A stretch of DNA of 63,704 bases, counting the filler, from a bacterium (lineage in GTDB: Bacteria > JALSQH01): assembly GCA_026985515.1 (NCBI GenBank). It is 13 parts of 13 records of this genome, joined end to end, with 100 filler letters (N's around TTAATTAATTAA, not from the genome) between each part and the next. Parts side by side here need not be neighbours in the genome. Positions count along the whole stretch, not along the records: positions 45,743 to 56,027 come from JALSQH010000163.1; 12 more parts are not named here. One strand, 5' to 3'. Each line of letters starts with the position of its first letter. The stretch's first letter is position 1. The notes beneath the pieces were generated by a model, which worked only from the letters and a program-made list of their open reading frames with translations, ran no database searches and had not been told where the DNA came from. Both the position numbers and the translations under genes were made by a program. Shown one piece after another: positions 24,251 to 56,127 of this stretch.

Positions 24251-24423
24251 CCCCCCTTCCGACCTTCTGTCCCTCCGTTAAGTGTGACTCCGTGGGGTAG
24301 TTTCACTTGAATAAACCGCTTTCACAGCCGACCCGATGGGAGGCTCCGCAAGAAGGATGTCTTCCTCTGCGGGCATTCCACGATTGCTCCGCCTTTACCC
24401 CATCGTGTCTGTCTCCGTCACAA
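24251..24423. repeat. Partial copy of the ~222-bp structured repeat, truncated by contig end
   Basis: 24271-24423 aligns to 40494-40646 with 12 substitutions in 153 nt. Confidence 0.95.
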
Positions 24424-24523
24424 NNNNNNNNNNNNNNNNNNNNNNNNNNNNNNNNNNNNNNNNNNNNTTAATTAATTAANNNNNNNNNNNNNNNNNNNNN
24501 NNNNNNNNNNNNNNNNNNNNNNN

Positions 24524-45742: not shown

Positions 45743-47183
45743 AAAAATCATTTATGTGAACAAAAGTGATCTCCCCGATGTAACATCAGATACAGTCAAA
45801 AAAAATGGAAGCTCCTACGAGTACAGGGTGACATTCAAAGATTTACTGGAGATCACAGATACCACAAACATTTCCTTTATTTTCTCAAATTACTGGTACT
45901 ATGTGGGAAGTCATGTATCCACACCCAGTGAGTGTACAAGTGAGAATAAATTTGAGTGTTACTATTTATATGCCATGAGGCATGTGGTGAGTGGTACAGA
46001 TGATTACTATGTGGTTGAAGCGAAAGTGAGTCTCCACTCATGGACAGCTGAGGACACCGCCATTTACAATCCAAGACTTCAGTTCACCTCATCAGAGGGG
46101 ATGATAGTTATGAGCAGCCTTGACAGGATAGAAGATGGTAAAACGGTGAGGCATTTCACACTCCAGAGAATCAACAATGGTGAAATTTCAGATATTCTGA
46201 CACTTAACTCTTCACAGTTATCAGATGTGGGAGAGCTTGATCCAGGTAATTTTAAAGTAATAACCGGTGGCATTTATCAGGGGAACCTTTATTATGCTGT
46301 AAAAGGAAGATTCAATGTTGAGTATGATGGTGACCCAAAACCTTATCCATCCCACTTCAACTTCGTACCTTATGCACATGTTGTGGAACGTGGAAATGTG
46401 AATTATGAAGGAGAAAATGAATACTGCGAAGGCGACTATACTATTTACTCAGATAATACAACCTCAATTACAGGCGTTGAATGCTATTTTGATGAAAACC
46501 ATAACGGAATTTTTGACGACACAGGTGATATTGAATGTACCGATGACGACAATAATGGTCAGTTTGATGCAGGAGAATGTGATTTCGTAAACAGCGGAAG
46601 ATTTTATAAAACTTATCTCTGTTCAACTCCCCTGGATTCATCTGAGAATGGAATCTGTACGAATTCTATTTTTGAATTCATAGATAATTCCAGCAGAAGC
46701 ATAGGATTTATCAACAACTACATCTATGTGGAAGGGGATTCATGGTTTGGTACTCCGTTTCTCTATGATATCAAAAGCGGAGAGCAGTCAAAAACGGGAT
46801 TGGGAATCTTTGATCTGGATTATTTCCCCTATGGAAGTTCAGACGGCATGCCTGCAGGATGGTTTATAACCTACGATTCCAGAGGTATTGCATTTTATGA
46901 TGACGAAAATAACAAATCCCTCTTTGATATCACAGCCATTGAGCCTGATGTTAATGAAAAGGTAAGGGCATATTTTGCAGCATACAATGGAACCATTGGA
47001 ATACTTATTCACAGTTACCCATCAGAAAAAGAATATCCCTACGAGACAACCTACACTGAGGAATACTCATTCTACACACTTCACCCCGATACGATGAAAG
47101 AAGAGTTCAGCAAAACTTCCATTTCAAACGGTCACAGCAAAGCGATTGAGATAGAACTTCTTGAATCAGGATTCTTTGAATAA
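45743..47183 (+). CDS. Hypothetical exported beta-rich protein with DxDxNG calcium-binding-like motifs, 5' truncated
   Basis: Long ORF; DENHNGIFD and DDDNNGQFD motifs; paired cysteines. Confidence 0.6.
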
Positions 47184-47184
47184 G

Positions 47185-47215
47185 AAAAGAGGCAGGTTCC
47201 CCTGCCTCTTTTTTT
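47185..47215. terminator. Bidirectional intrinsic terminator
   Basis: AAAAGAGGCAGG-TTCC-CCTGCCTCTTTT plus T run, between convergent genes. Confidence 0.85.
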
Positions 47216-47241
47216 CTAATTTTTTCACTATCGTTACAACC

Positions 47242-48699
47242 CTACTTCAGCTCCCCTACTACCTTAACTGAATAATTGCCATTATTTTCTTCTATCCTGA
47301 GTACACCATATCTGAATCTTATTACCAATAAGAATACGCACGGTTTTATTTCCACTTTCTCCTTTGCCTTATCTGAATTCACATCACGTGCTACTATCCA
47401 GATGTGTCCATTACCATCTACCCATACCCCGGTATCGCCTCCGTCACAAACCCACGGTGATGGCAATTCAAGTATCTCTGTCTTCAAAGAGGCAAGATCT
47501 AAAATTGCGATTCTCTTTCCCAGTACAGAGATCACCCTTCTATTTTTCCTATCAAAAGCGACAGAATGAAATGGTTCCGACTCGGGGTGAATAAGCAAAG
47601 GAATGTGAAAATAAGATTCCGATGAGTATGTATTGTAAGAAATTTCTTTTGAGAACAGGGTCTTCAAATTTTCAGGATCCAGAACCATAACTTTATCTCT
47701 TACCGGTGCTTCGGAAAGAATATCTTTAGTAAACTCTCTCGTATAAACAACCAGGCCCGTACCTTTAAAATAATCCATACCAATAATTGTCGTGAAGGTT
47801 TCCGGGTTTTCAAATCGTTTGTATCTGACATCAGTAACATTCATTGAATATTTATCAAATTCAACATTTCCAACGAAAAGATAGGAATCAATATTCCTGG
47901 CCAGAGAGGGGTAACGATAAAGATAATCAGGATTAAATGAATCACTTCCCTGAAAATAAATCATGTTTGAATCCTTAATAATTTCTCCCCCCTCAAATAT
48001 AAAAAGTCTGGACAAATCAAGATCTTTATCTCTCAAAAAAATTCTGGGATAATAAACAGAGGTATAAGGATAAGCTTCAAAAAACCCGGGTAATCTACCA
48101 TTTGAAACCTCAATACTATAACTGTCTCTTCCATACTTAATCCAACCATATCTGTTAAGTGGAGCCCAGTAAAAAAGGGATACTATGGAAAAATAGTATC
48201 CTTCATCAAATCTGAAAACAGAGTTGAAAATACCGCCTTTAACTTTTATAAACTTGCCATTCTCATTTAAGAAATAAAAAGTTTCACCGTTCGTAATACT
48301 TTCAGAAAAAAATCTGGCCATAAAAAGAAAGGCATTGGCTGTACCCTCAACAGGATAAATACACAGGCCAGAAAAAGAATCATATACATCTGTAAATGTG
48401 GAGGGATACAGCGAGTAACTTTTTTCAACATGCATCTGTGAAGAATCTACGCTATAAAACCTTAATTCAGCTCTTTCTGTTACAACATCTGAACCCCTAT
48501 AAATATCTTTCACATAAAGAGTTGTAAGTGACAATCCCTCTCTTTCTGGAGAAACAATTATATCCTTTACACCATCAACTAACAAGCCTTCAGGGTGGCA
48601 TCGCCCGCCGCCAAAATCAGGATGGCATGAAAGCAAAATCAACAGCAACAACCACAGAAGAAAAACCTCTGTTTTCCCCTTAAAATTCATTTTGAACAC
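47242..48699 (-). CDS. Hypothetical lipoprotein
   Basis: Lipobox LLSC; aromatic, beta-rich body. Confidence 0.65.
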   Translation of the reverse strand: MFKMNFKGKTEVFLLWLLLLILLSCHPDFGGGRCHPEGLLVDGVKDIIVSPEREGLSLTTLYVKDIYRGSDVVTERAELRFYSVDSSQMHVEKSYSLYPSTFTDVYDSFSGLCIYPVEGTANAFLFMARFFSESITNGETFYFLNENGKFIKVKGGIFNSVFRFDEGYYFSIVSLFYWAPLNRYGWIKYGRDSYSIEVSNGRLPGFFEAYPYTSVYYPRIFLRDKDLDLSRLFIFEGGEIIKDSNMIYFQGSDSFNPDYLYRYPSLARNIDSYLFVGNVEFDKYSMNVTDVRYKRFENPETFTTIIGMDYFKGTGLVVYTREFTKDILSEAPVRDKVMVLDPENLKTLFSKEISYNTYSSESYFHIPLLIHPESEPFHSVAFDRKNRRVISVLGKRIAILDLASLKTEILELPSPWVCDGGDTGVWVDGNGHIWIVARDVNSDKAKEKVEIKPCVFLLVIRFRYGVLRIEENNGNYSVKVVGELK

Positions 48700-48765
48700 C
48701 TCTCATATTCCCTCACCCTTCCATATGCTAACCAAATGAAATAGTTCCTTGTTTCATCATCTATA

Positions 48766-48794
48766 ATTATCATACCGCGAATCAACAGTGTCAA
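48766..48794 (-). promoter_or_regulatory. Sigma70-type promoter for the lipoprotein gene
   Basis: Minus strand TTGACA-N17-GATAAT. Confidence 0.5.
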
Positions 48795-48942
48795 GCACAG
48801 AAACTTTTTCCTCCACAATTACACAGTAGAAGGATTTTAGATTAAATCTGAAACTGACTGAAAGAATAAAAATGGAAAAGAACTTTTTCTAATTTTTCTG
48901 AATAAAATTTACATCACAATTAAAAAGGTTTACTTCCCCCCT

Positions 48943-49362
48943 TCACTCCCCGATTATCTTTATTAACACTCTCTTCCTTCTCCTGCCATCAAATTCACCA
49001 TAGAAAATCTGCTCCCATGGTCCAAAATCAAGTTTACCATCAGTTATGGCAACAACGACTTCTCTCCCCATAATCTGCCTCTTTATGTGGGCATCACCAT
49101 TATCTTCACCTGTGAGATTGTGTCTGTACCTGCTGATGGGTTCGTGAGGGGCAAGCCTTTCAAGAAACTCCTTAAAATCTTCGTGAAGGCCCGGTTCATC
49201 ATCGTTGATGAAAACCGATGCGGTGATATGCATGGCATTCACAAGAACGAGACCCTCTTTGATCCCGCTCTCCCTTACCGCTTCCTCCACCTCTTTCGTA
49301 ATATTGACAAACCCAACCCTTGTGGGTAGATTAAACCAAAGTTCCTTTCTGTAACTCTTCAT
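48943..49362 (-). CDS. yjbQ: YjbQ/UPF0047 protein
   Basis: [36 protein letters not shown]. Confidence 0.9.
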
Positions 49363-50072
49363 CTTCCCTCTCCTCCTTCAGGAAACAGGAAATTTGTTAA
49401 AAATAGATCAAGAAGTTTGTTCAATTCTTCAAATTTTGCAGATTTTCTCATTTCCTCAGGTGTCTGCACATAGAGATCAGGGGGATCAAGATCCTCTGAT
49501 GAATACTTGATGAGATTCTCCATCAGTTCAGGTGTAGTTTCCAGATGGAACTGGAGAGCCACCACCTGATTTCTGCATGTAAAGGCCTGATTATAACACG
49601 CCTCACTTTTTGCAAGATGAATAGAGCCATGGGGCAGTTCAAAGGTGTCACCATGCCAGTGAAATGCAGTAAATCTCTGTGGGAAACCCTTTAAAAGGGG
49701 AGAATGCCTGCCTTCAGGAGTTAGAGTTACATCAAACCAGCCTATTTCCCTGTAACGGTTTCTGTATATCTTTGAGCCAAAAACATCTGCTATCAACTGG
49801 GCACCAAGGCAGATTCCAAGAACCTTTTTCTCCTTTTTAATGGATTTCTCAATAAATTTTTTCTCCTCCTTCAGCCATGGATACTTCTCATATTCATATA
49901 TGTTCATCGGCCCACCCATAACCACCAGAAGATCAAAATCCTTTGAATCTGGTGGAAGTGCATTGCGCTCAAATATCTTCCACTCCTCAAAATCAAATCC
50001 CCTCTTCTTCATCCAGGTCAGGATAGCTCCCGGTTTTTCAAAGGGAACATGCTCCAGAAAAAGTGCCTTCAT
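49359..50072 (-). CDS. Class I glutamine amidotransferase-like protein
   Basis: MGGPM, GICLGAQ, WHGDTF, LQFHLE. Confidence 0.9.
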
Positions 50073-50231
50073 ACTCCAGACTCCGTTTTAAAATTATGTT
50101 AGATTTTACCCATTGTGGGAGAATGAATCAAGGATTTTTAAAAGCAGTCATGGAAATTTTGTGATAAAATATTATTGAATTGAAAGTCGTAACCCGGCAA
50201 ATGTGAAGTCAACCATCTAAGGAGGTACAGG

Positions 50232-50657
50232 ATGGAACACACGAAAGAGGAACTTAAAGAATTTATGATAAAGGAAATAGAAATCATTCAGGATATAATA
50301 AAAAGAATGGCCTTCAACTCCTTCATGATAAAAGGATGGGCCGTAACCCTTGTCGCAGTAACACTCCTTTTGAGAGGTACCAGGTATCAGGTTCTCATAG
50401 CTTTTATCCCATTGATAGTATTCTGGCATCTTGATGCATATTTCCTCTGGCAGGAGAGACTTTACAGGAGACTCTATAACTGGGTGGTAAGCAACAGATT
50501 AAAAACAGAAGATTTTCTCTTTGATATGAATGCTTACAGATTCAAAGATGAGGAACAATCAAAATTGAGGATAATGTTTTCCACCACCCTTTTCTGGTTC
50601 TACGGTTCAATTTTCCTGCTAACACTCATTTATGCCGTCATTGTACTGATCCTGTAA
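50232..50657 (+). CDS. Small membrane protein of a family often encoded beside TIR-domain genes
   Basis: IQDIIKRMAFNSFMIKGW and FWHLDAYFLWQERLYRRLY motifs; AAGGAGG RBS. Confidence 0.6.
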   Translation: MEHTKEELKEFMIKEIEIIQDIIKRMAFNSFMIKGWAVTLVAVTLLLRGTRYQVLIAFIPLIVFWHLDAYFLWQERLYRRLYNWVVSNRLKTEDFLFDMNAYRFKDEEQSKLRIMFSTTLFWFYGSIFLLTLIYAVIVLIL

Positions 50658-50753
50658 GAATTTCACTTTTCCTGGTTACTCTATCTCCACTTTCATAAGG
50701 TTTCTGGCATAGAGAAAGAAATCTATCTATAATATTTCCCAGGAGGTGAGGAG

Positions 50754-51761
50754 ATGAAGAAATATTTCTTGCTCATTCTGGTTGCTCTTATCACAACAGG
50801 CGGCTGTAAAAAACATTCAGGTAAAAAAGTTGTTGTGGTTTATACATCCACAGATCAGGTCTTCTCTGAGCCAGTACTGAAAGCCTTTGAGAAGAAAACG
50901 GGTATTGAGGTAAAGATGGTTTTTGATACTGAAGAATCAAAATCCACAGGCCTTGTTAACAGATTAATTGCAGAGAAAAACTCACCCCAGTGCGATGTAT
51001 TCTGGTCAAATGACCCGCTGAGAGTGGAGATTTTGAAGCAAAAGGGGATTCTCCAGCCATACCACTCTCCATCAGCTGAGGGTATCCCTGAGAAATTTCA
51101 TGACCCACAGTGGTACTGGACAGGTTTTTCGGGGAGGATAAGAGTTATTCTTGTCAACACCTCCCTTGTTAAAAACAATTACCCTGAAAGTGTCACTGAA
51201 TTAATTGATAGAAAATGGTATGGGCAATTTTCCATTGCAAATCCTCTATTCGGCACAACTTCCTTCCATATTGCTTCACTTTTCGTACTCTGGGGTGACA
51301 CAAGGGCAAAGGAGTTTTTAGAAGAGATGAAGAAAAATGGTCTTAAAATGGCCTCTTCAAATGGCGAAGTTGCAAAATGGGTGGCGATGGGAAAAGTAAG
51401 ATGGGGATTTGTAGACAGCGACGATGCCTTTTCAATGATAAGAGAAGGATACAGTGTAAAAATGATCATCCCTGATCAAAAAGGAATGGGAACCCTCTTA
51501 ATGCCAAATGCAGTTGCCATGATTAAGAACTGCCCCCATCCAGAAACTGCCAGAAAATTGATAGACTTTCTCCTTTCAGAAGAGGCAGAAAAGATGTTAG
51601 CCTACGAAACATGTCACCAGATTCCGCTTCACTCAGGTCTTACTCTACCTCAAGGTGTCCCTGACATTTCAAAAATAAAAACTATGGATGTCAGTTACCC
51701 TGCAGTTGGGAAAAAGATGCTTGAGATCTTACCATATCTCAAAAAATGGGTTTCACATTGA
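50754..51761 (+). CDS. Fe3+-type ABC transporter substrate-binding lipoprotein (AfuA/FbpA family)
   Basis: Lipobox-like GGC, VVYTS, RLIAEK..PQCDVFW. Confidence 0.85.
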   Translation: MKKYFLLILVALITTGGCKKHSGKKVVVVYTSTDQVFSEPVLKAFEKKTGIEVKMVFDTEESKSTGLVNRLIAEKNSPQCDVFWSNDPLRVEILKQKGILQPYHSPSAEGIPEKFHDPQWYWTGFSGRIRVILVNTSLVKNNYPESVTELIDRKWYGQFSIANPLFGTTSFHIASLFVLWGDTRAKEFLEEMKKNGLKMASSNGEVAKWVAMGKVRWGFVDSDDAFSMIREGYSVKMIIPDQKGMGTLLMPNAVAMIKNCPHPETARKLIDFLLSEEAEKMLAYETCHQIPLHSGLTLPQGVPDISKIKTMDVSYPAVGKKMLEILPYLKKWVSH

Positions 51762-53260
51762 TAATCCTGAGGATCCTGATATGGCTTTTTTTCATTTTAA
51801 TCTTCCTCCTCCCACTTATCCCTCTCTTCCTCTCTTTTTCCTCATCATCTCTGATAGAAATAGTGAGAGAGAAAAGTTTCCTAAATGCGTTTCTCAATAG
51901 CCTTTTCATATCCACTTTCTCCACTATAATCTCCCTAATACTGGGTTCACTTACAGGCTTTCTGATCTCAAAGGTTGATTTACCAGGGAGAAAAATCTTC
52001 ACCATTCTCCTTATGATACCCCTTCTCGTTGTCCCATATCAGTTTGCTCTATCATGGTCACTGATACTTCCACCTTCATTAACAAAGTTGCTCTTCACAA
52101 AGTGGGGAGTGGTTTTTATCCTTGCTGAAAGCTACTATCCGGTGATTCTTCTCCTCACCATAGCAGGATTGAATTCCATCTCGAGGGAAGAAGAGGAAAG
52201 CGCGCTCATACTTTCAAAACCTTCCAAAATATTCACCGGGATCTACCTCCGCAGAGTTCTTCCATTTCTTATTGCAGGCTCCCTGATAGTTTTCCTCTTC
52301 TCCTTTTCAGAGGTGGGAGTCGCTACATACCTTGGTGTGGATGTTATCCCTTACGAAATCCTGGTGAAATTTTCTGCCTTTTACGACCTGAAGGGTGCCA
52401 CCATTTATGCTGTACCCATGGGAGTTATGGGATTGCTGCTTTTTATCTTTGAGTATTTTCTCTTCTCAAAATCTATTTCATTCACATGGAGAGGAGGAGC
52501 AGGAGGAGAGGTTGTATATAAAAGCAGGATTCTCAAATATACAGGGTTCTTTTTAACGACAACATTAATCATCATTCTGGTAATAATGCCTCTCTCAGGT
52601 ATGATCATGGGAAGTGTGAGGAGTGAAAATATATTCAGAACTATAGTAACAGGTACAGAGAGCCTTCTCAGAAGCCTCTTCTTCTCTCTAATTGCCGCAT
52701 TTTCAGGAATGATATGGGGTTTTCTGGCAATTTACCTCTGCAAAAGATTTTCAAAATCAATTTTTGGAGCAGTAACTCTTTTGACATTTTTTATTTCTCC
52801 ACCTGTCATAGCAACCGGTATCCTCTACTCATGGGGAAAATTCCTTCCATTCCTCTATGGTACAGCCTTAACCCTCATCGCAGGATGGCTTGCCCGTTTT
52901 TCCTTTCCCGGGATCAAGATTCTTGAATCAGCCTTTGAGAATTTAGACAGAGCATCAGAGGAAGCAGCCATCATAGCTGGAGCGGGAGAAATAAGAAGAG
53001 GAGTAAAAATCATATTCCCGCAGGTGAGAAACTGGTTTTATGCCGGTGTAATTTTGATTTTTGTTTTTTCAATGAATGAACTATCTGCCAGCACAATGCT
53101 CTATCCACCCGGTGGAGAGACTTTAGTGGTCAGACTTTATACACTTACAGTTAACAACTCTCCCGAAGTTCTCTCGGTGCTCTCCCTTCTCAATCTGACA
53201 GGAACACTTCTTTTCTCCACTCTTTTTATGCTGTATGGAGTGAAAAGGAGAAACAAATGA
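51746..53260 (+). CDS. Fe3+-type ABC transporter permease
   Basis: Two BPD_transp_1 halves with EESA/EEAA loops. Confidence 0.85.
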   Translation: MGFTLIILRILIWLFFILIFLLPLIPLFLSFSSSSLIEIVREKSFLNAFLNSLFISTFSTIISLILGSLTGFLISKVDLPGRKIFTILLMIPLLVVPYQFALSWSLILPPSLTKLLFTKWGVVFILAESYYPVILLLTIAGLNSISREEEESALILSKPSKIFTGIYLRRVLPFLIAGSLIVFLFSFSEVGVATYLGVDVIPYEILVKFSAFYDLKGATIYAVPMGVMGLLLFIFEYFLFSKSISFTWRGGAGGEVVYKSRILKYTGFFLTTTLIIILVIMPLSGMIMGSVRSENIFRTIVTGTESLLRSLFFSLIAAFSGMIWGFLAIYLCKRFSKSIFGAVTLLTFFISPPVIATGILYSWGKFLPFLYGTALTLIAGWLARFSFPGIKILESAFENLDRASEEAAIIAGAGEIRRGVKIIFPQVRNWFYAGVILIFVFSMNELSASTMLYPPGGETLVVRLYTLTVNNSPEVLSVLSLLNLTGTLLFSTLFMLYGVKRRNK

Positions 53261-53961
53261 TCCCTGTTGAGCTGGTAGAAGTATGGAAGAATTTTCAGGG
53301 AGAGGATGTCCTGAGAGGTATTAATCTAAAAGTGGAAAATGGTGAGATTCTGGCAATAATAGGTATATCCGGTGCGGGTAAAACAACCATTTTGCGAATA
53401 ATAGCGGGGCTGGAAACTCCAGACAGAGGAGAGGTCCTGATAGAAGGCAAGACGGCTTCAAAAGATGGCAGGATTATAACACCTCCATATCAGAGAAAGG
53501 TGGGGTTCATCTTTCAGAATCTGGGATTATGGGAACATATGAGCGTGGAAAATCATCTCAGATTTGTATGCAAGAACAAGGAAAAGATTGAAAAAACACT
53601 CGATTTCTTTGCTCTAAAGGATCACAGAAAGAAAAAGCCCTACCAGTTATCGGGGGGACAGAAACAGAGACTTGCAATTGCAAGGACCTTTATAACTGAG
53701 CCAGATATCATTCTCCTTGACGAACCATTTGCCAACCTTGACCTCCCTGCCAAAAGGAAACTGAGGGAGGAGATTTTAAAAATAAAAAGGGAGAGAAACA
53801 CAACATTTATCTATGTAACCCATGATCCCACAGATCTGAAACTGATGGCTGACAGAATCGCGGTGTTAGTTGATGGAAGAATTATTCAGATAGGGAGTTA
53901 CAAAGAAATCCTTGAGAAACCTGTGGATAAAAAGGTTACGGAACTTCTTGTAATTGAATAA
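53257..53961 (+). CDS. ABC transporter ATP-binding protein
   Basis: GISGAGKT, LSGGQ, LLDEP, VTHD. Confidence 0.92.
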   Translation: MIPVELVEVWKNFQGEDVLRGINLKVENGEILAIIGISGAGKTTILRIIAGLETPDRGEVLIEGKTASKDGRIITPPYQRKVGFIFQNLGLWEHMSVENHLRFVCKNKEKIEKTLDFFALKDHRKKKPYQLSGGQKQRLAIARTFITEPDIILLDEPFANLDLPAKRKLREEILKIKRERNTTFIYVTHDPTDLKLMADRIAVLVDGRIIQIGSYKEILEKPVDKKVTELLVIE

Positions 53962-54022
53962 AATTTCAAAAAGCAAAAATTCCCCTTGAAAATTATAATT
54001 CCACGCTTAGAATAGCAATCTC

Positions 54023-54751
54023 ATGCTGTTGCTATTCCTTATCTCACTATTTGCCGCATTTATCTTTTCCCTCGGTGGTGTGGGTGCCGCCATTGTTCTA
54101 ATACCCATAATGGTTTCAATGGGAATCCCTGTGAACATTGCAAAACCTGTGGGACTTTTTTACAACACAATCAGTCTTTCAGGAGCTACATATAGCAATA
54201 TCAAAAATAAAAGGCTGGATGTCAGGCTGGGAATACCCATAATCGTTTCCTCATTCTTCTTTGCAGTTATTGGTGCATACATTTCAAAATTCATACCTGC
54301 TAAAGTGATCCTGATTCTCTTCATTATTTTTCTCATCTTCTCAAGTTTTATCTTTTTTATCAGCAAAAAGGGTAAGGATAGGTACAGAGAGGATGTGCCA
54401 TATCTTGCATTGGGCGGAGTTGGAGCACTTGCAGGTCTCCTCTCCGGACTCCTCGGCATAGGCGGGGGAGGAATAATCTCTCCACTTATGCTTATGCTCG
54501 GTTTCAATCCCAAGAAAATAACAACTGTAACTGCCTTTGCTGTCCCCTTCTCCTCTTTCTCAGGCTTCCTCACCTACTGGGCAATGGGGAGTGTAAACTG
54601 GAAGTTGATGCTGATTGTCTCACTGGGCGGCCTGATAGGTGCCTCAATCGGAACAAATCTCATGCATGAAAGATTCCATCCCCAGACAGTCAAAAAAGTC
54701 CTCGCAGTAATTCTGCTCATCCTGGCAGTAAAGCTGATGTTTAAGGTGTAG
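54023..54751 (+). CDS. Sulfite exporter TauE/SafE family protein
   Basis: LGGVGAAIVLIP and SGLLGIGGG repeats; about 8 TM helices. Confidence 0.85.
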   Translation: MLLLFLISLFAAFIFSLGGVGAAIVLIPIMVSMGIPVNIAKPVGLFYNTISLSGATYSNIKNKRLDVRLGIPIIVSSFFFAVIGAYISKFIPAKVILILFIIFLIFSSFIFFISKKGKDRYREDVPYLALGGVGALAGLLSGLLGIGGGGIISPLMLMLGFNPKKITTVTAFAVPFSSFSGFLTYWAMGSVNWKLMLIVSLGGLIGASIGTNLMHERFHPQTVKKVLAVILLILAVKLMFKV

Positions 54752-54765
54752 TGCAAGGCACGGGG

Positions 54766-54794
54766 TTGAGTCAGGGGGAGAGTTGGGGTATAAT
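54766..54794 (+). promoter_or_regulatory. Sigma70 promoter of the integrase, embedded in G-tracts
   Basis: TTGAGT-N17-TATAAT, ending 20 nt before the ATG. Confidence 0.7.
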
Positions 54795-54814
54795 GGGGGA
54801 AGGGGGAAAGTTAA

Positions 54815-55927
54815 ATGTTTGGTAGTGAAAGATTAAAATATGAGAAAGAGGGAAATGAATTTTTATTATTCATCAGAGAAGACACACAGAGAATAAGAGT
54901 TATCAAAGGAGATAAAAACAAAGTTGTCGTTTTTATACCCTATGATCCAGGCTTAATAGATAAGATTAAAACAATTAATGGCAGGAGGTGGAATCCAGAG
55001 AAAAAATACTGGGAGTTACCATTCAGAGAAGACTTAATATCAAAACTTAAAATCCTTTTTCCAGAAAACCTTTCTATTGATCCAGAGCTATATCTTTTTC
55101 CTTTGGAAAAAGAGCTTACAATTAGAAAATACTCAAAGAGAACAGTCAGATCCTATGTTAGTATAAATAGAAACTTCCTCAACTGGATTGGTAAGGAACC
55201 TGAAAATGTGAATAATCAGGATATAAAAAAGTACCTGTATTACTTAGTAGAACAAAAGGAAAGGTCAACCTCAACAATTAATATTGTAATAAACGCTTTA
55301 AAATTCTATTATGGAGAAATTCTAAAGAAAAAGTTTATTTATGATATCAGGCGACCCAAAAAAGATAAAAAGTTGCCTGTCGTTTTGAGTAGAGAAGAAG
55401 TTTTAAAAATTATTTCTGCCATAAACAACATAAAACACAAGGCAATTATATCACTCGTTTATTCCTCTGGATTGAGAGTGGGAGAAGTTGTTAAACTAAC
55501 AATAGAGGACATAGATACTGAAAGTAAACTCATTCATATTAAAGAAAGTAAGGGAAGGAAAGATAGGTACACCCTGCTTTCAGAACATGCTCTGCAAATC
55601 TTGAAAGATTACCTTAAAAAATACAGACCTTCAAAGTGGTTATTTGAAGGATCTCAAAAGGGAAACCATATATCCACCAGAACAGTTCAGGCAATTTTCA
55701 AACAGGCATGTGAAAAAGCGGGAATTAAAAAGCCTGTAAGTGTCCATTCCTTGAGACACAGCTTTGCCACTCATCTATTAGAAAGTGGAGTGGATCTGAG
55801 GTATATTCAGGAGATCCTGGGGCATAAGAGCAGCAAAACAACGGAAATTTATACCCATGTGAGTAAGGCGAACATTGCTAAAATTAAAAGTCCGTTTGAT
55901 GGAATTATGGAGGAGCAAAAGGAATGA
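54815..55927 (+). CDS. Integron-like tyrosine recombinase (HARP-like + SAM_4-like + catalytic domain), no I2 insertion
   Basis: YSKRTVRSY, LPVVLSREEV, YSSGLRVGE, KGRKDR, HSLRHSFATHLLE, LGH, TTEIYTHV. AT-richer than neighbouring genes. Confidence 0.88.
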   Translation: MFGSERLKYEKEGNEFLLFIREDTQRIRVIKGDKNKVVVFIPYDPGLIDKIKTINGRRWNPEKKYWELPFREDLISKLKILFPENLSIDPELYLFPLEKELTIRKYSKRTVRSYVSINRNFLNWIGKEPENVNNQDIKKYLYYLVEQKERSTSTINIVINALKFYYGEILKKKFIYDIRRPKKDKKLPVVLSREEVLKIISAINNIKHKAIISLVYSSGLRVGEVVKLTIEDIDTESKLIHIKESKGRKDRYTLLSEHALQILKDYLKKYRPSKWLFEGSQKGNHISTRTVQAIFKQACEKAGIKKPVSVHSLRHSFATHLLESGVDLRYIQEILGHKSSKTTEIYTHVSKANIAKIKSPFDGIMEEQKE

Positions 55928-55948
55928 ATACTGTTTCGAAAGTAAGGC

Positions 55949-56024
55949 ATATCCGCAATACTGCGTATACACTTCTATATTGGGAAAATATACGCAATGC
56001 GGGTATAACTGAGTTGTGCGCAAT
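55949..56024 (+). mobile_element. Putative attI-like recombination site
   Basis: Three direct repeats ending CGCAAT, an interleaved inverted repeat, and TAAC-tga-GTT just before the contig break. Confidence 0.55.
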
Positions 56025-56127
56025 CAGNNNNNNNNNNNNNNNNNNNNNNNNNNNNNNNNNNNNNNNNNNNNTTAATTAATTAANNNNNNNNNNNNNNNNN
56101 NNNNNNNNNNNNNNNNNNNNNNNNNNN

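Follow-up and report, generated by a model that had tools for sequence, protein, structure and literature searches.

The window analyzed here, 63,704 nucleotides in all, consists of 13 contigs of one bacterial genome joined end to end, with 12 joints and linkers of the form N44-TTAATTAATTAA-N44. One of these contigs (45743-56027), whose 10285 bp agree with the longest contig recorded for the identical protein P0001, carries near its 3' end an intact gene on the plus strand (54815..55927) that encodes an integrase of 370 amino acids. The stop codon lies 100 bp from the end of the contig, which is followed by an artificial joint (56028..56127, no strand; N44, TTAATTAATTAA, N44). Because the window is a concatenation of contigs, gene order over the joints has no meaning, and since the contig stops at 56027, the sigma-factor, MoxR and DUF58-like genes later in the window are not true neighbors of the integrase. 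The genes upstream on the same contig are ordinary chromosomal ones that code for a glutamine amidotransferase, an ABC transporter in three parts and a membrane protein with a weak match (NF007909, E 9.5e-11; the model is named 'hypothetical protein'). The 63-bp gap 5' of the integrase gene holds a sigma-70-like promoter (TTGAGT, 17 nt, TATAAT; 54766..54794, plus strand), which is a consensus match only (10 of 12 positions) in a region where 5 such sites were found and 4.0 were expected from shuffles. Elsewhere in the window, the start of one contig (40494-40933) holds a tandem unit of ~220 nt with copies that are 99% identical, and a 66% copy of this unit is found at another contig's end (24271-24488). 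This repeat is probably what broke the assembly.

The integrase carries a SAM-like core-binding domain at residues 98-173 (55106..55333, plus strand; PF13495, Phage_int_SAM_4, E 6.5e-17) and a catalytic domain at residues 191-351 (55385..55867, plus strand; PF00589, Phage_integrase, E 1.1e-48). All IntI-like motifs that an earlier, sequence-only reading of this DNA had quoted are found in the translation of the ORF. We read R221, K246, H311, R314, H337 and Y346 as the likely catalytic set; in the alignment of the integrase family, R221, K246, R314 and Y346 are invariant columns and H311 and H337 are kept in at least 90% of the rows. The expectation that IntI-specific profiles would miss this enzyme was borne out, as the integron integrase model TIGR02249 scores 225.5 bits against a cut-off of 265 and matches in two separate stretches. 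NF011946 reaches 168.6 bits with a cut-off of 435. The best curated model is NF040815 (recomb_XerA_Arch) with 261.4 bits, above its cut-off of 220, and its NCBI name is 'site-specific tyrosine recombinase/integron integrase'. Among the PDB sequences, XerA 5hxy (155.7 bits) and the Vibrio IntI4 2a3v (155.6 bits) are effectively tied.

What sets the enzyme apart from canonical integron integrases is the absence of the IntI-specific insertion, I2. A phmmer comparison with Vibrio IntI4 (2a3v) aligns query residues 94-267 with IntI4 residues 6-181 and query residues 282-361 with IntI4 residues 238-317. The place of the missing insertion, as judged from phmmer and from motif spacing, is thus query 267-282, corresponding to IntI4 181-238 (55613..55660, plus strand), and in the alignment the I2 region has 15 amino acids in the query and 57 in IntI4. 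The distance from the KDR motif to the HxLRH motif is 59 amino acids in the query compared to 100 in IntI1 and four other canonical IntIs. We gathered 80 homologous loci solely by integrase similarity, and a spacing of 58-62 amino acids recurs in 71 of them (both motifs readable). In relatives the TIGR02249 match is likewise split at about 180/234, with model positions ~181-233 unmatched. The proposal that this is an IntI-like enzyme without I2 therefore stands.

Compared with the two-domain XerA-type architecture, the protein has ~96 extra N-terminal residues, which fold as a HARP-like domain (residues ~25-96; 54887..55102, plus strand; from Pfam, profile and structure comparisons). Residues ~25-96 are conserved throughout the integrase family. 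The Pfam HARP model (PF07443) matches the query with E 0.003 and 17.5 bits, below the cut-off of 25, and among homologues it exceeds this cut-off in P0002 (27.4 bits) and P0114 (27.0 bits) and stays below it in P0023 (24.7), P0064 (20.7) and P0053 (18.8 bits). A profile built from 51 N-domains finds 5384 representative proteins at E<=0.001, many of them with 2-4 tandem copies. Domain content was scanned in 10 of the 150 matches listed: two are multi-module integrases, three are SNF2 helicases of SMARCAL1-type architecture, one protein of 2835 amino acids combines SNF2, methylase and HARP matches, and P0215, with Secretin_N repeats, looks spurious. The SNF2 and Helicase_C proteins P0214, P0223 and P0230 match the N-domain profile at E 1e-22 to 1e-23; Pfam HARP scores 27.6 bits in P0230 and 24.0 bits, below the cut-off of 25, in P0223, and gives no match at E<=0.001 in P0214.

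The AlphaFold model of the domain has block-mean pLDDT values of 91-94 for residues 31-90. In structure comparison, the model comes closest to the T4 UvsW N-domain (Z 7.6; rmsd 1.7 A across 61 amino acids), and XPB damage-recognition domains follow with Z 4.3-4.7. Foldseek of the N-domain against the PDB returned nothing at E<=0.001; the SMARCAL1 HARP domain (4o66) ranks second with E 0.053 and probability 0.85, and Z is 3.9. The claim of a HARP-related N-terminus is upheld by Pfam HARP in P0002 and P0114, by the SNF2-HARP matches of the profile and by the UvsW N-domain fold. Judging from these comparisons we take the N-terminal domain to be a HARP homologue, for which the fold evidence with its middling Z-scores would not be enough alone. 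Like the HARP domains of SMARCAL1-type proteins and the UvsW N-domain, to which it is related by profile and fold, it is a module of ~70 amino acids that occurs in tandem copies in some proteins. Unlike them, it is joined to a recombinase rather than to a motor of the SNF2 or SF2 type. Some homologues (e.g. P0002, P0022 and P0037) carry an excisionase-type HTH_17 in front of the HARP module. Query residues 1-24 align with the HTH_17 of homologues, have low pLDDT and look like a degenerate HTH_17 remnant.

The scores of NF040815 (261 bits vs 220) and of XerA 5hxy, which heads the PDB matches in a tie with IntI4 2a3v, raise the question whether the gene encodes a housekeeping Xer-type (XerA-like) recombinase that serves in chromosome-dimer resolution. 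The genes upstream are ordinary chromosomal ones, and the palindromes that we describe below, similar to classical core sites, would then be a dif-like site. Archaeal XerA (5hxy, 4a8e) supplies the best-scoring curated model as well as the best-scoring PDB chain and shares the core-binding and catalytic domains with the query. However, solved XerA has no HARP domain and its alignment starts at query residue 93, and we know of no cassette array associated with archaeal XerA. The phylogeny also speaks against a Xer enzyme. Our tree contained the query, 27 hand-picked members of the 80 loci, 5 canonical IntIs and 7 Xer proteins from the same genomes, with archaeal XerA left out. In it, canonical IntI clusters with the I2-less family, apart from these Xer proteins, in a clade with support of 100/100, and canonical IntI is monophyletic within this clade (100/99). 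The I2-less side is weakly held together (89/75), and the query falls into a clade of 12 rows (96/96) in which bacteria and archaea are mixed. By this protein phylogeny we show that the enzyme belongs to the IntI lineage. Furthermore, genomes carrying the family possess separate Xer-like genes, the distribution is patchy for a housekeeping gene, with close homologues (E<=1e-55) in 69 of 201 sampled genomes from the phylum of G005 and 24 of 201 from the phylum of G001, and relatives head cassette arrays. A housekeeping Xer role is hence extremely improbable.

Two further observations were made during this survey. In the sample from the phylum of G005, 67 of 201 genomes exceed the TIGR02249 cut-off with a full-length match and so possess an IntI of canonical type, insertion included; where places were compared, it lies at other loci than the I2-less family, and some genomes have both. 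A single in-frame stop occurs in many family matches elsewhere (e.g. L018, G016 and G163), which may reflect pseudogenes or read-through at match ends.

The DNA between the stop codon and the contig end (55928-56027) can be aligned to post-stop DNA from 11 relatives that have 53-69% protein identity and come from several bacterial and archaeal phyla. The relatives share a common layout of a palindrome, a spacer, a second palindrome, about 5 bases and a GTTRRRY box. A column-by-column alignment with these 11 relatives places the two imperfect palindromes of the window at 55949..55969 and 55988..56007 and, by the same comparison with relatives, the GTTRRRY-type box GTTGTGC, a putative crossover point for cassette insertion, at 56013..56019 (all plus strand). 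The post-stop region looks like an attI site on the strength of this alignment. A co-oriented att-like site downstream of the gene had been noted before, and it is present at 55949-56019. A CCAAAT-like motif is common to the loops of the short attC sites and the spacer that separates the two attI palindromes in close relatives; the motif is weaker in the window's own spacer (55970-55987).

The way in which contigs end at these loci is uneven. In four relatives the contig stops within the GTTRRRY box. Over the 80 loci, a contig end lies at most 500 bp downstream in 27 and at most 500 bp upstream in 11, and the loci with a single short side comprise 24 downstream and 8 upstream cases (p 0.007). 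Such a downstream excess is what variable cassettes at the insertion point would cause in metagenome assembly. In four public runs, the best of which is labelled hydrothermal vent metagenome, contigs break inside the integrase gene into pieces of 50-730 nt and come in several variants that are 90-95% alike; positions 56005-56027 lie outside all of these contigs. The conserved C-terminal part of the gene (55555-55870) also draws several variants that are 90-95% alike in runs X1-X4, which suggests that the communities of these runs contain several related integrases.

In complete genomes, attC-looking repeats are found downstream of the integrase. A crude script detector, the thresholds of which were relaxed after inspecting L026 because a stricter first version found nothing, identified 36 downstream sites on the integrase strand and 1 on the opposite strand, and upstream 2 and 1 on the two strands. 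The consensus fold derived from 16 short sites comprises 19 pairs, and compensatory changes are seen in 14 of these, a covariation that would also fit an RNA-level hairpin such as a terminator. The consensus site consists of an R''/R' stem, in which the AAC...GTT core is invariant, a loop that is asymmetric (1-2 nt vs 5 nt) and a bulge-free L stem of 12 bp. A covariance model (R1), built on sites from the same locus set and therefore to be read with rough E-values, gave 80 hits at E<=1 over 941 kb; all lie on the integrase strand, 79 are downstream, and 64 of the 80 lie beyond the training set. R1 hits at E<=0.01 occur in 22 of the 38 loci that extend 1.5 kb or more downstream and in 8 of 8 relatives with 53-69% identity and at least 1.9 kb downstream (L002, L004, L005, L006, L007, L008, L017 and L037). 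Of the 25 loci that extend 5 kb or more downstream, eight lack R1 hits even at E<=1; in three of these eight (L031, L044 and L046), sites are present by the script detector. In L007 and L005 the cassettes consist of one or two co-oriented ORFs. No Rfam family matched the L005, L007 and L026 arrays or the contig that carries the integrase in the window, and R1 gave no credible hit in the class 1 integron L111 (the one tested) or in the region around tet(X3) (L099). Of 5 array-bearing genomes, none has a match that exceeds the TIGR02249 cut-off, and the best match in each of the five is the gene adjacent to the array. The idea of a cassette-capturing platform is carried by the relatives, which head co-oriented hairpin attC arrays; the window itself shows no cassette. 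Here cassettes cannot be visible because the contig stops 8 nt past the putative crossover box.

Since the gene sits at a contig end, it might also mark the edge of a larger mobile element such as an island, a prophage or a transposon, the contig break being the junction of element and chromosome. Relatives are found on plasmids, a truncated copy lies beside an IS91-like element on Acinetobacter plasmids, and many homologues sit on contigs of 1.3-2.5 kb. Against this, clustering of 795 flanking ORFs from the 80 loci revealed no conserved mobile-element gene, and the largest clusters comprise 7 loci each. Neither a conserved neighbor gene nor an IS91 transposase was seen in these flanks, the two outcomes that the sequence-only reading had named as speaking against cassette capture. 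The upstream genes encode the amidotransferase, ABC transporter and membrane protein named above, the family is single-copy in complete genomes, and the feature that recurs downstream is the cassette array. A position at the edge of a mobile element is therefore very unlikely. We had also considered an IS-like multicopy element, an idea that came from the many short contigs; it was ruled out by the finding that the integrase family is single-copy in 5 genomes.

Two plasmid loci deserve mention in their own right. On an Acinetobacter indicus plasmid (L099, 5049-7070), tet(X3) is immediately preceded by a truncated integrase of the family that points in the same direction. This integrase aligns with query residues 130-362 at 51.7% identity, and many Acinetobacter plasmids show the same match. 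Between the integrase and tet(X3) there are a palindrome and a GTTRRRY-type box ~15 nt 5' of the tet(X3) start, which would put tet(X3) at the position of a first cassette. With R1, no attC hit was found past tet(X3), and an IS91-like element is nearby. On a Chryseobacterium plasmid (L100, 7968-12214), small co-oriented genes that have weak R1 hits come after a full-length family member, and farther along this gene run there are an IS110 transposase and a group II intron.

Neither the script detector nor R1 found an attC site in any of the window's 13 contigs, and the copy in the window could for this reason be an empty platform. It might then be a relic, composed of an integrase and attI without cassettes ('In0'), or a platform that is inactive in this organism. 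Among relatives, L018, which has no R1 hit, carries an in-frame TGA inside the integrase match, and in L025 and L037 the frame stops before the match end; L025 is R1-negative, though L037 has four hits. In the window, by contrast, the ORF is intact with all residues that we read as catalytic, a promoter-like site lies upstream, and the attI architecture is conserved. Moreover, the contig stops just past the crossover box, which is also the case in relatives with known variable arrays, and the window is part of the genome only. We therefore regard a relic or inactive platform as unlikely.

Our preferred reading is that the gene encodes the integrase of a non-canonical, integron-like gene-capture platform, to which we assign a probability of roughly 0.8. 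In such a platform, cassettes would be inserted by recombination of attI with attC and excised by recombination between two attC sites, and strands would be exchanged at the GTT in the GTTRRRY box. The attC site would be recognized as a folded single strand in the fashion of classical IntI, but without the I2 helix. The array of this genome may lie beyond the contig end, and differences in cassette content within the population are probably what broke the assembly at this point. The HARP domain probably contributes structure-specific DNA binding, be it at the hairpin base, at the 5-nt bulge or at a replication fork, and thus may act at folded sites or forks. It had been suggested that HARP replaces I2. 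As a general rule this does not hold, because L071 and L061 (both Ignavibacteriota) lack I2 as well as a HARP module and yet head arrays, as judged from 6 sites of the script detector in L071 and 2 R1 hits at E<=0.01 in L061. Given these two loci and a number of HARP modules that varies from 0 to 4 per protein in the integrase family, we infer that HARP is accessory and no obligatory replacement of I2.

Several features of the platform are shared with classical integrons (IntI1, VchIntIA). The enzyme is a tyrosine recombinase of the same lineage, an attI-like site with a GTTRRRY box adjoins the gene, and the cassettes of relatives hold one or two ORFs and end in imperfect palindromes with RYYYAAC...GTTRRRY ends and covarying stems. 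However, here the I2 insertion is missing, an additional HARP domain is present and the integrase is co-oriented with the cassettes. Classical attC sites contain extrahelical bases. In contrast, the attC sites of the relatives described here have an asymmetric loop of 1-2 vs 5 nt and an unbulged L stem.

Co-orientation of integrase and array is known from the 'inverted' integrons of Treponema and other Spirochaetes (PMC4889954, PMC9668308). In the available part of PMC4889954, however, these integrases were identified by the IntI-specific domain profile, and that domain is absent here. Among published descriptions, the closest that we found is the Bacteroidales rAID-1 (Ross et al., 10.1101/471110), at least as far as the accessible portion of that text goes. 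It has a XerD-like recombinase at the 5' end, co-directional genes downstream and intergenic repeats described as 'reminiscent of integrons', and its criteria are a recombinase that is >44% identical to BF9343_RS08045 and low-GC co-directional genes downstream (10.1101/471110). In contrast to the family described here, rAID-1 appears in that portion for Bacteroidales only and as immunity-gene arrays only. The same portion makes no mention of a missing I2, of HARP, of hairpin covariation or of attI (10.1101/471110), and our comparison is one with the description only.

The literature, in the sections of the papers available, defines IntI by the insertion (PMC9668308, PMC9024848, PMC4889954), and recombinases without the insertion near attC 'are not IntI' (PMC4889954). 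One study describes the insertion as 'not fully conserved' in an integron-like subgroup (PMC8138268); the word HARP has 0 occurrences in it. Our literature search, which had supplementary files outside its scope, found no publication on a HARP-fused or I2-less integron integrase. According to the accessible text on IntegronFinder 2.0, integrons are very rare in Firmicutes and Bacteroidetes (PMC9024848).

Beyond the individual locus, we propose that the I2-less and mostly HARP-fused integrases represent a second kind of integron that is ancient and widespread in bacteria and archaea, a proposal that we consider evenly balanced between right and wrong. It would explain arrays in phyla in which integrons are supposedly rare (Bacteroidota, Bacillota, Nitrospirota and several archaeal phyla) as well as some 'orphan' attC clusters (CALINs). 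The I2 helix would then be dispensable for folded attC sites, with HARP or nothing serving sites that have a 5-nt bulge in place of extrahelical bases. The I2-less family may represent the state that preceded the gain of I2.

Papers and software define integron integrases by I2, yet a sister family without I2 heads arrays of textbook appearance. If these enzymes are active, cassette capture would be far wider than surveys say and would span the divide between bacteria and archaea, as the mixed clade of 12 rows indicates. Detection tools would in that case need a new profile, and the accepted account, in which single-strand recombination evolved via the acquisition of I2, would have to be revised. 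The HARP fusion in turn provides a testable handle on the recognition of folded DNA.
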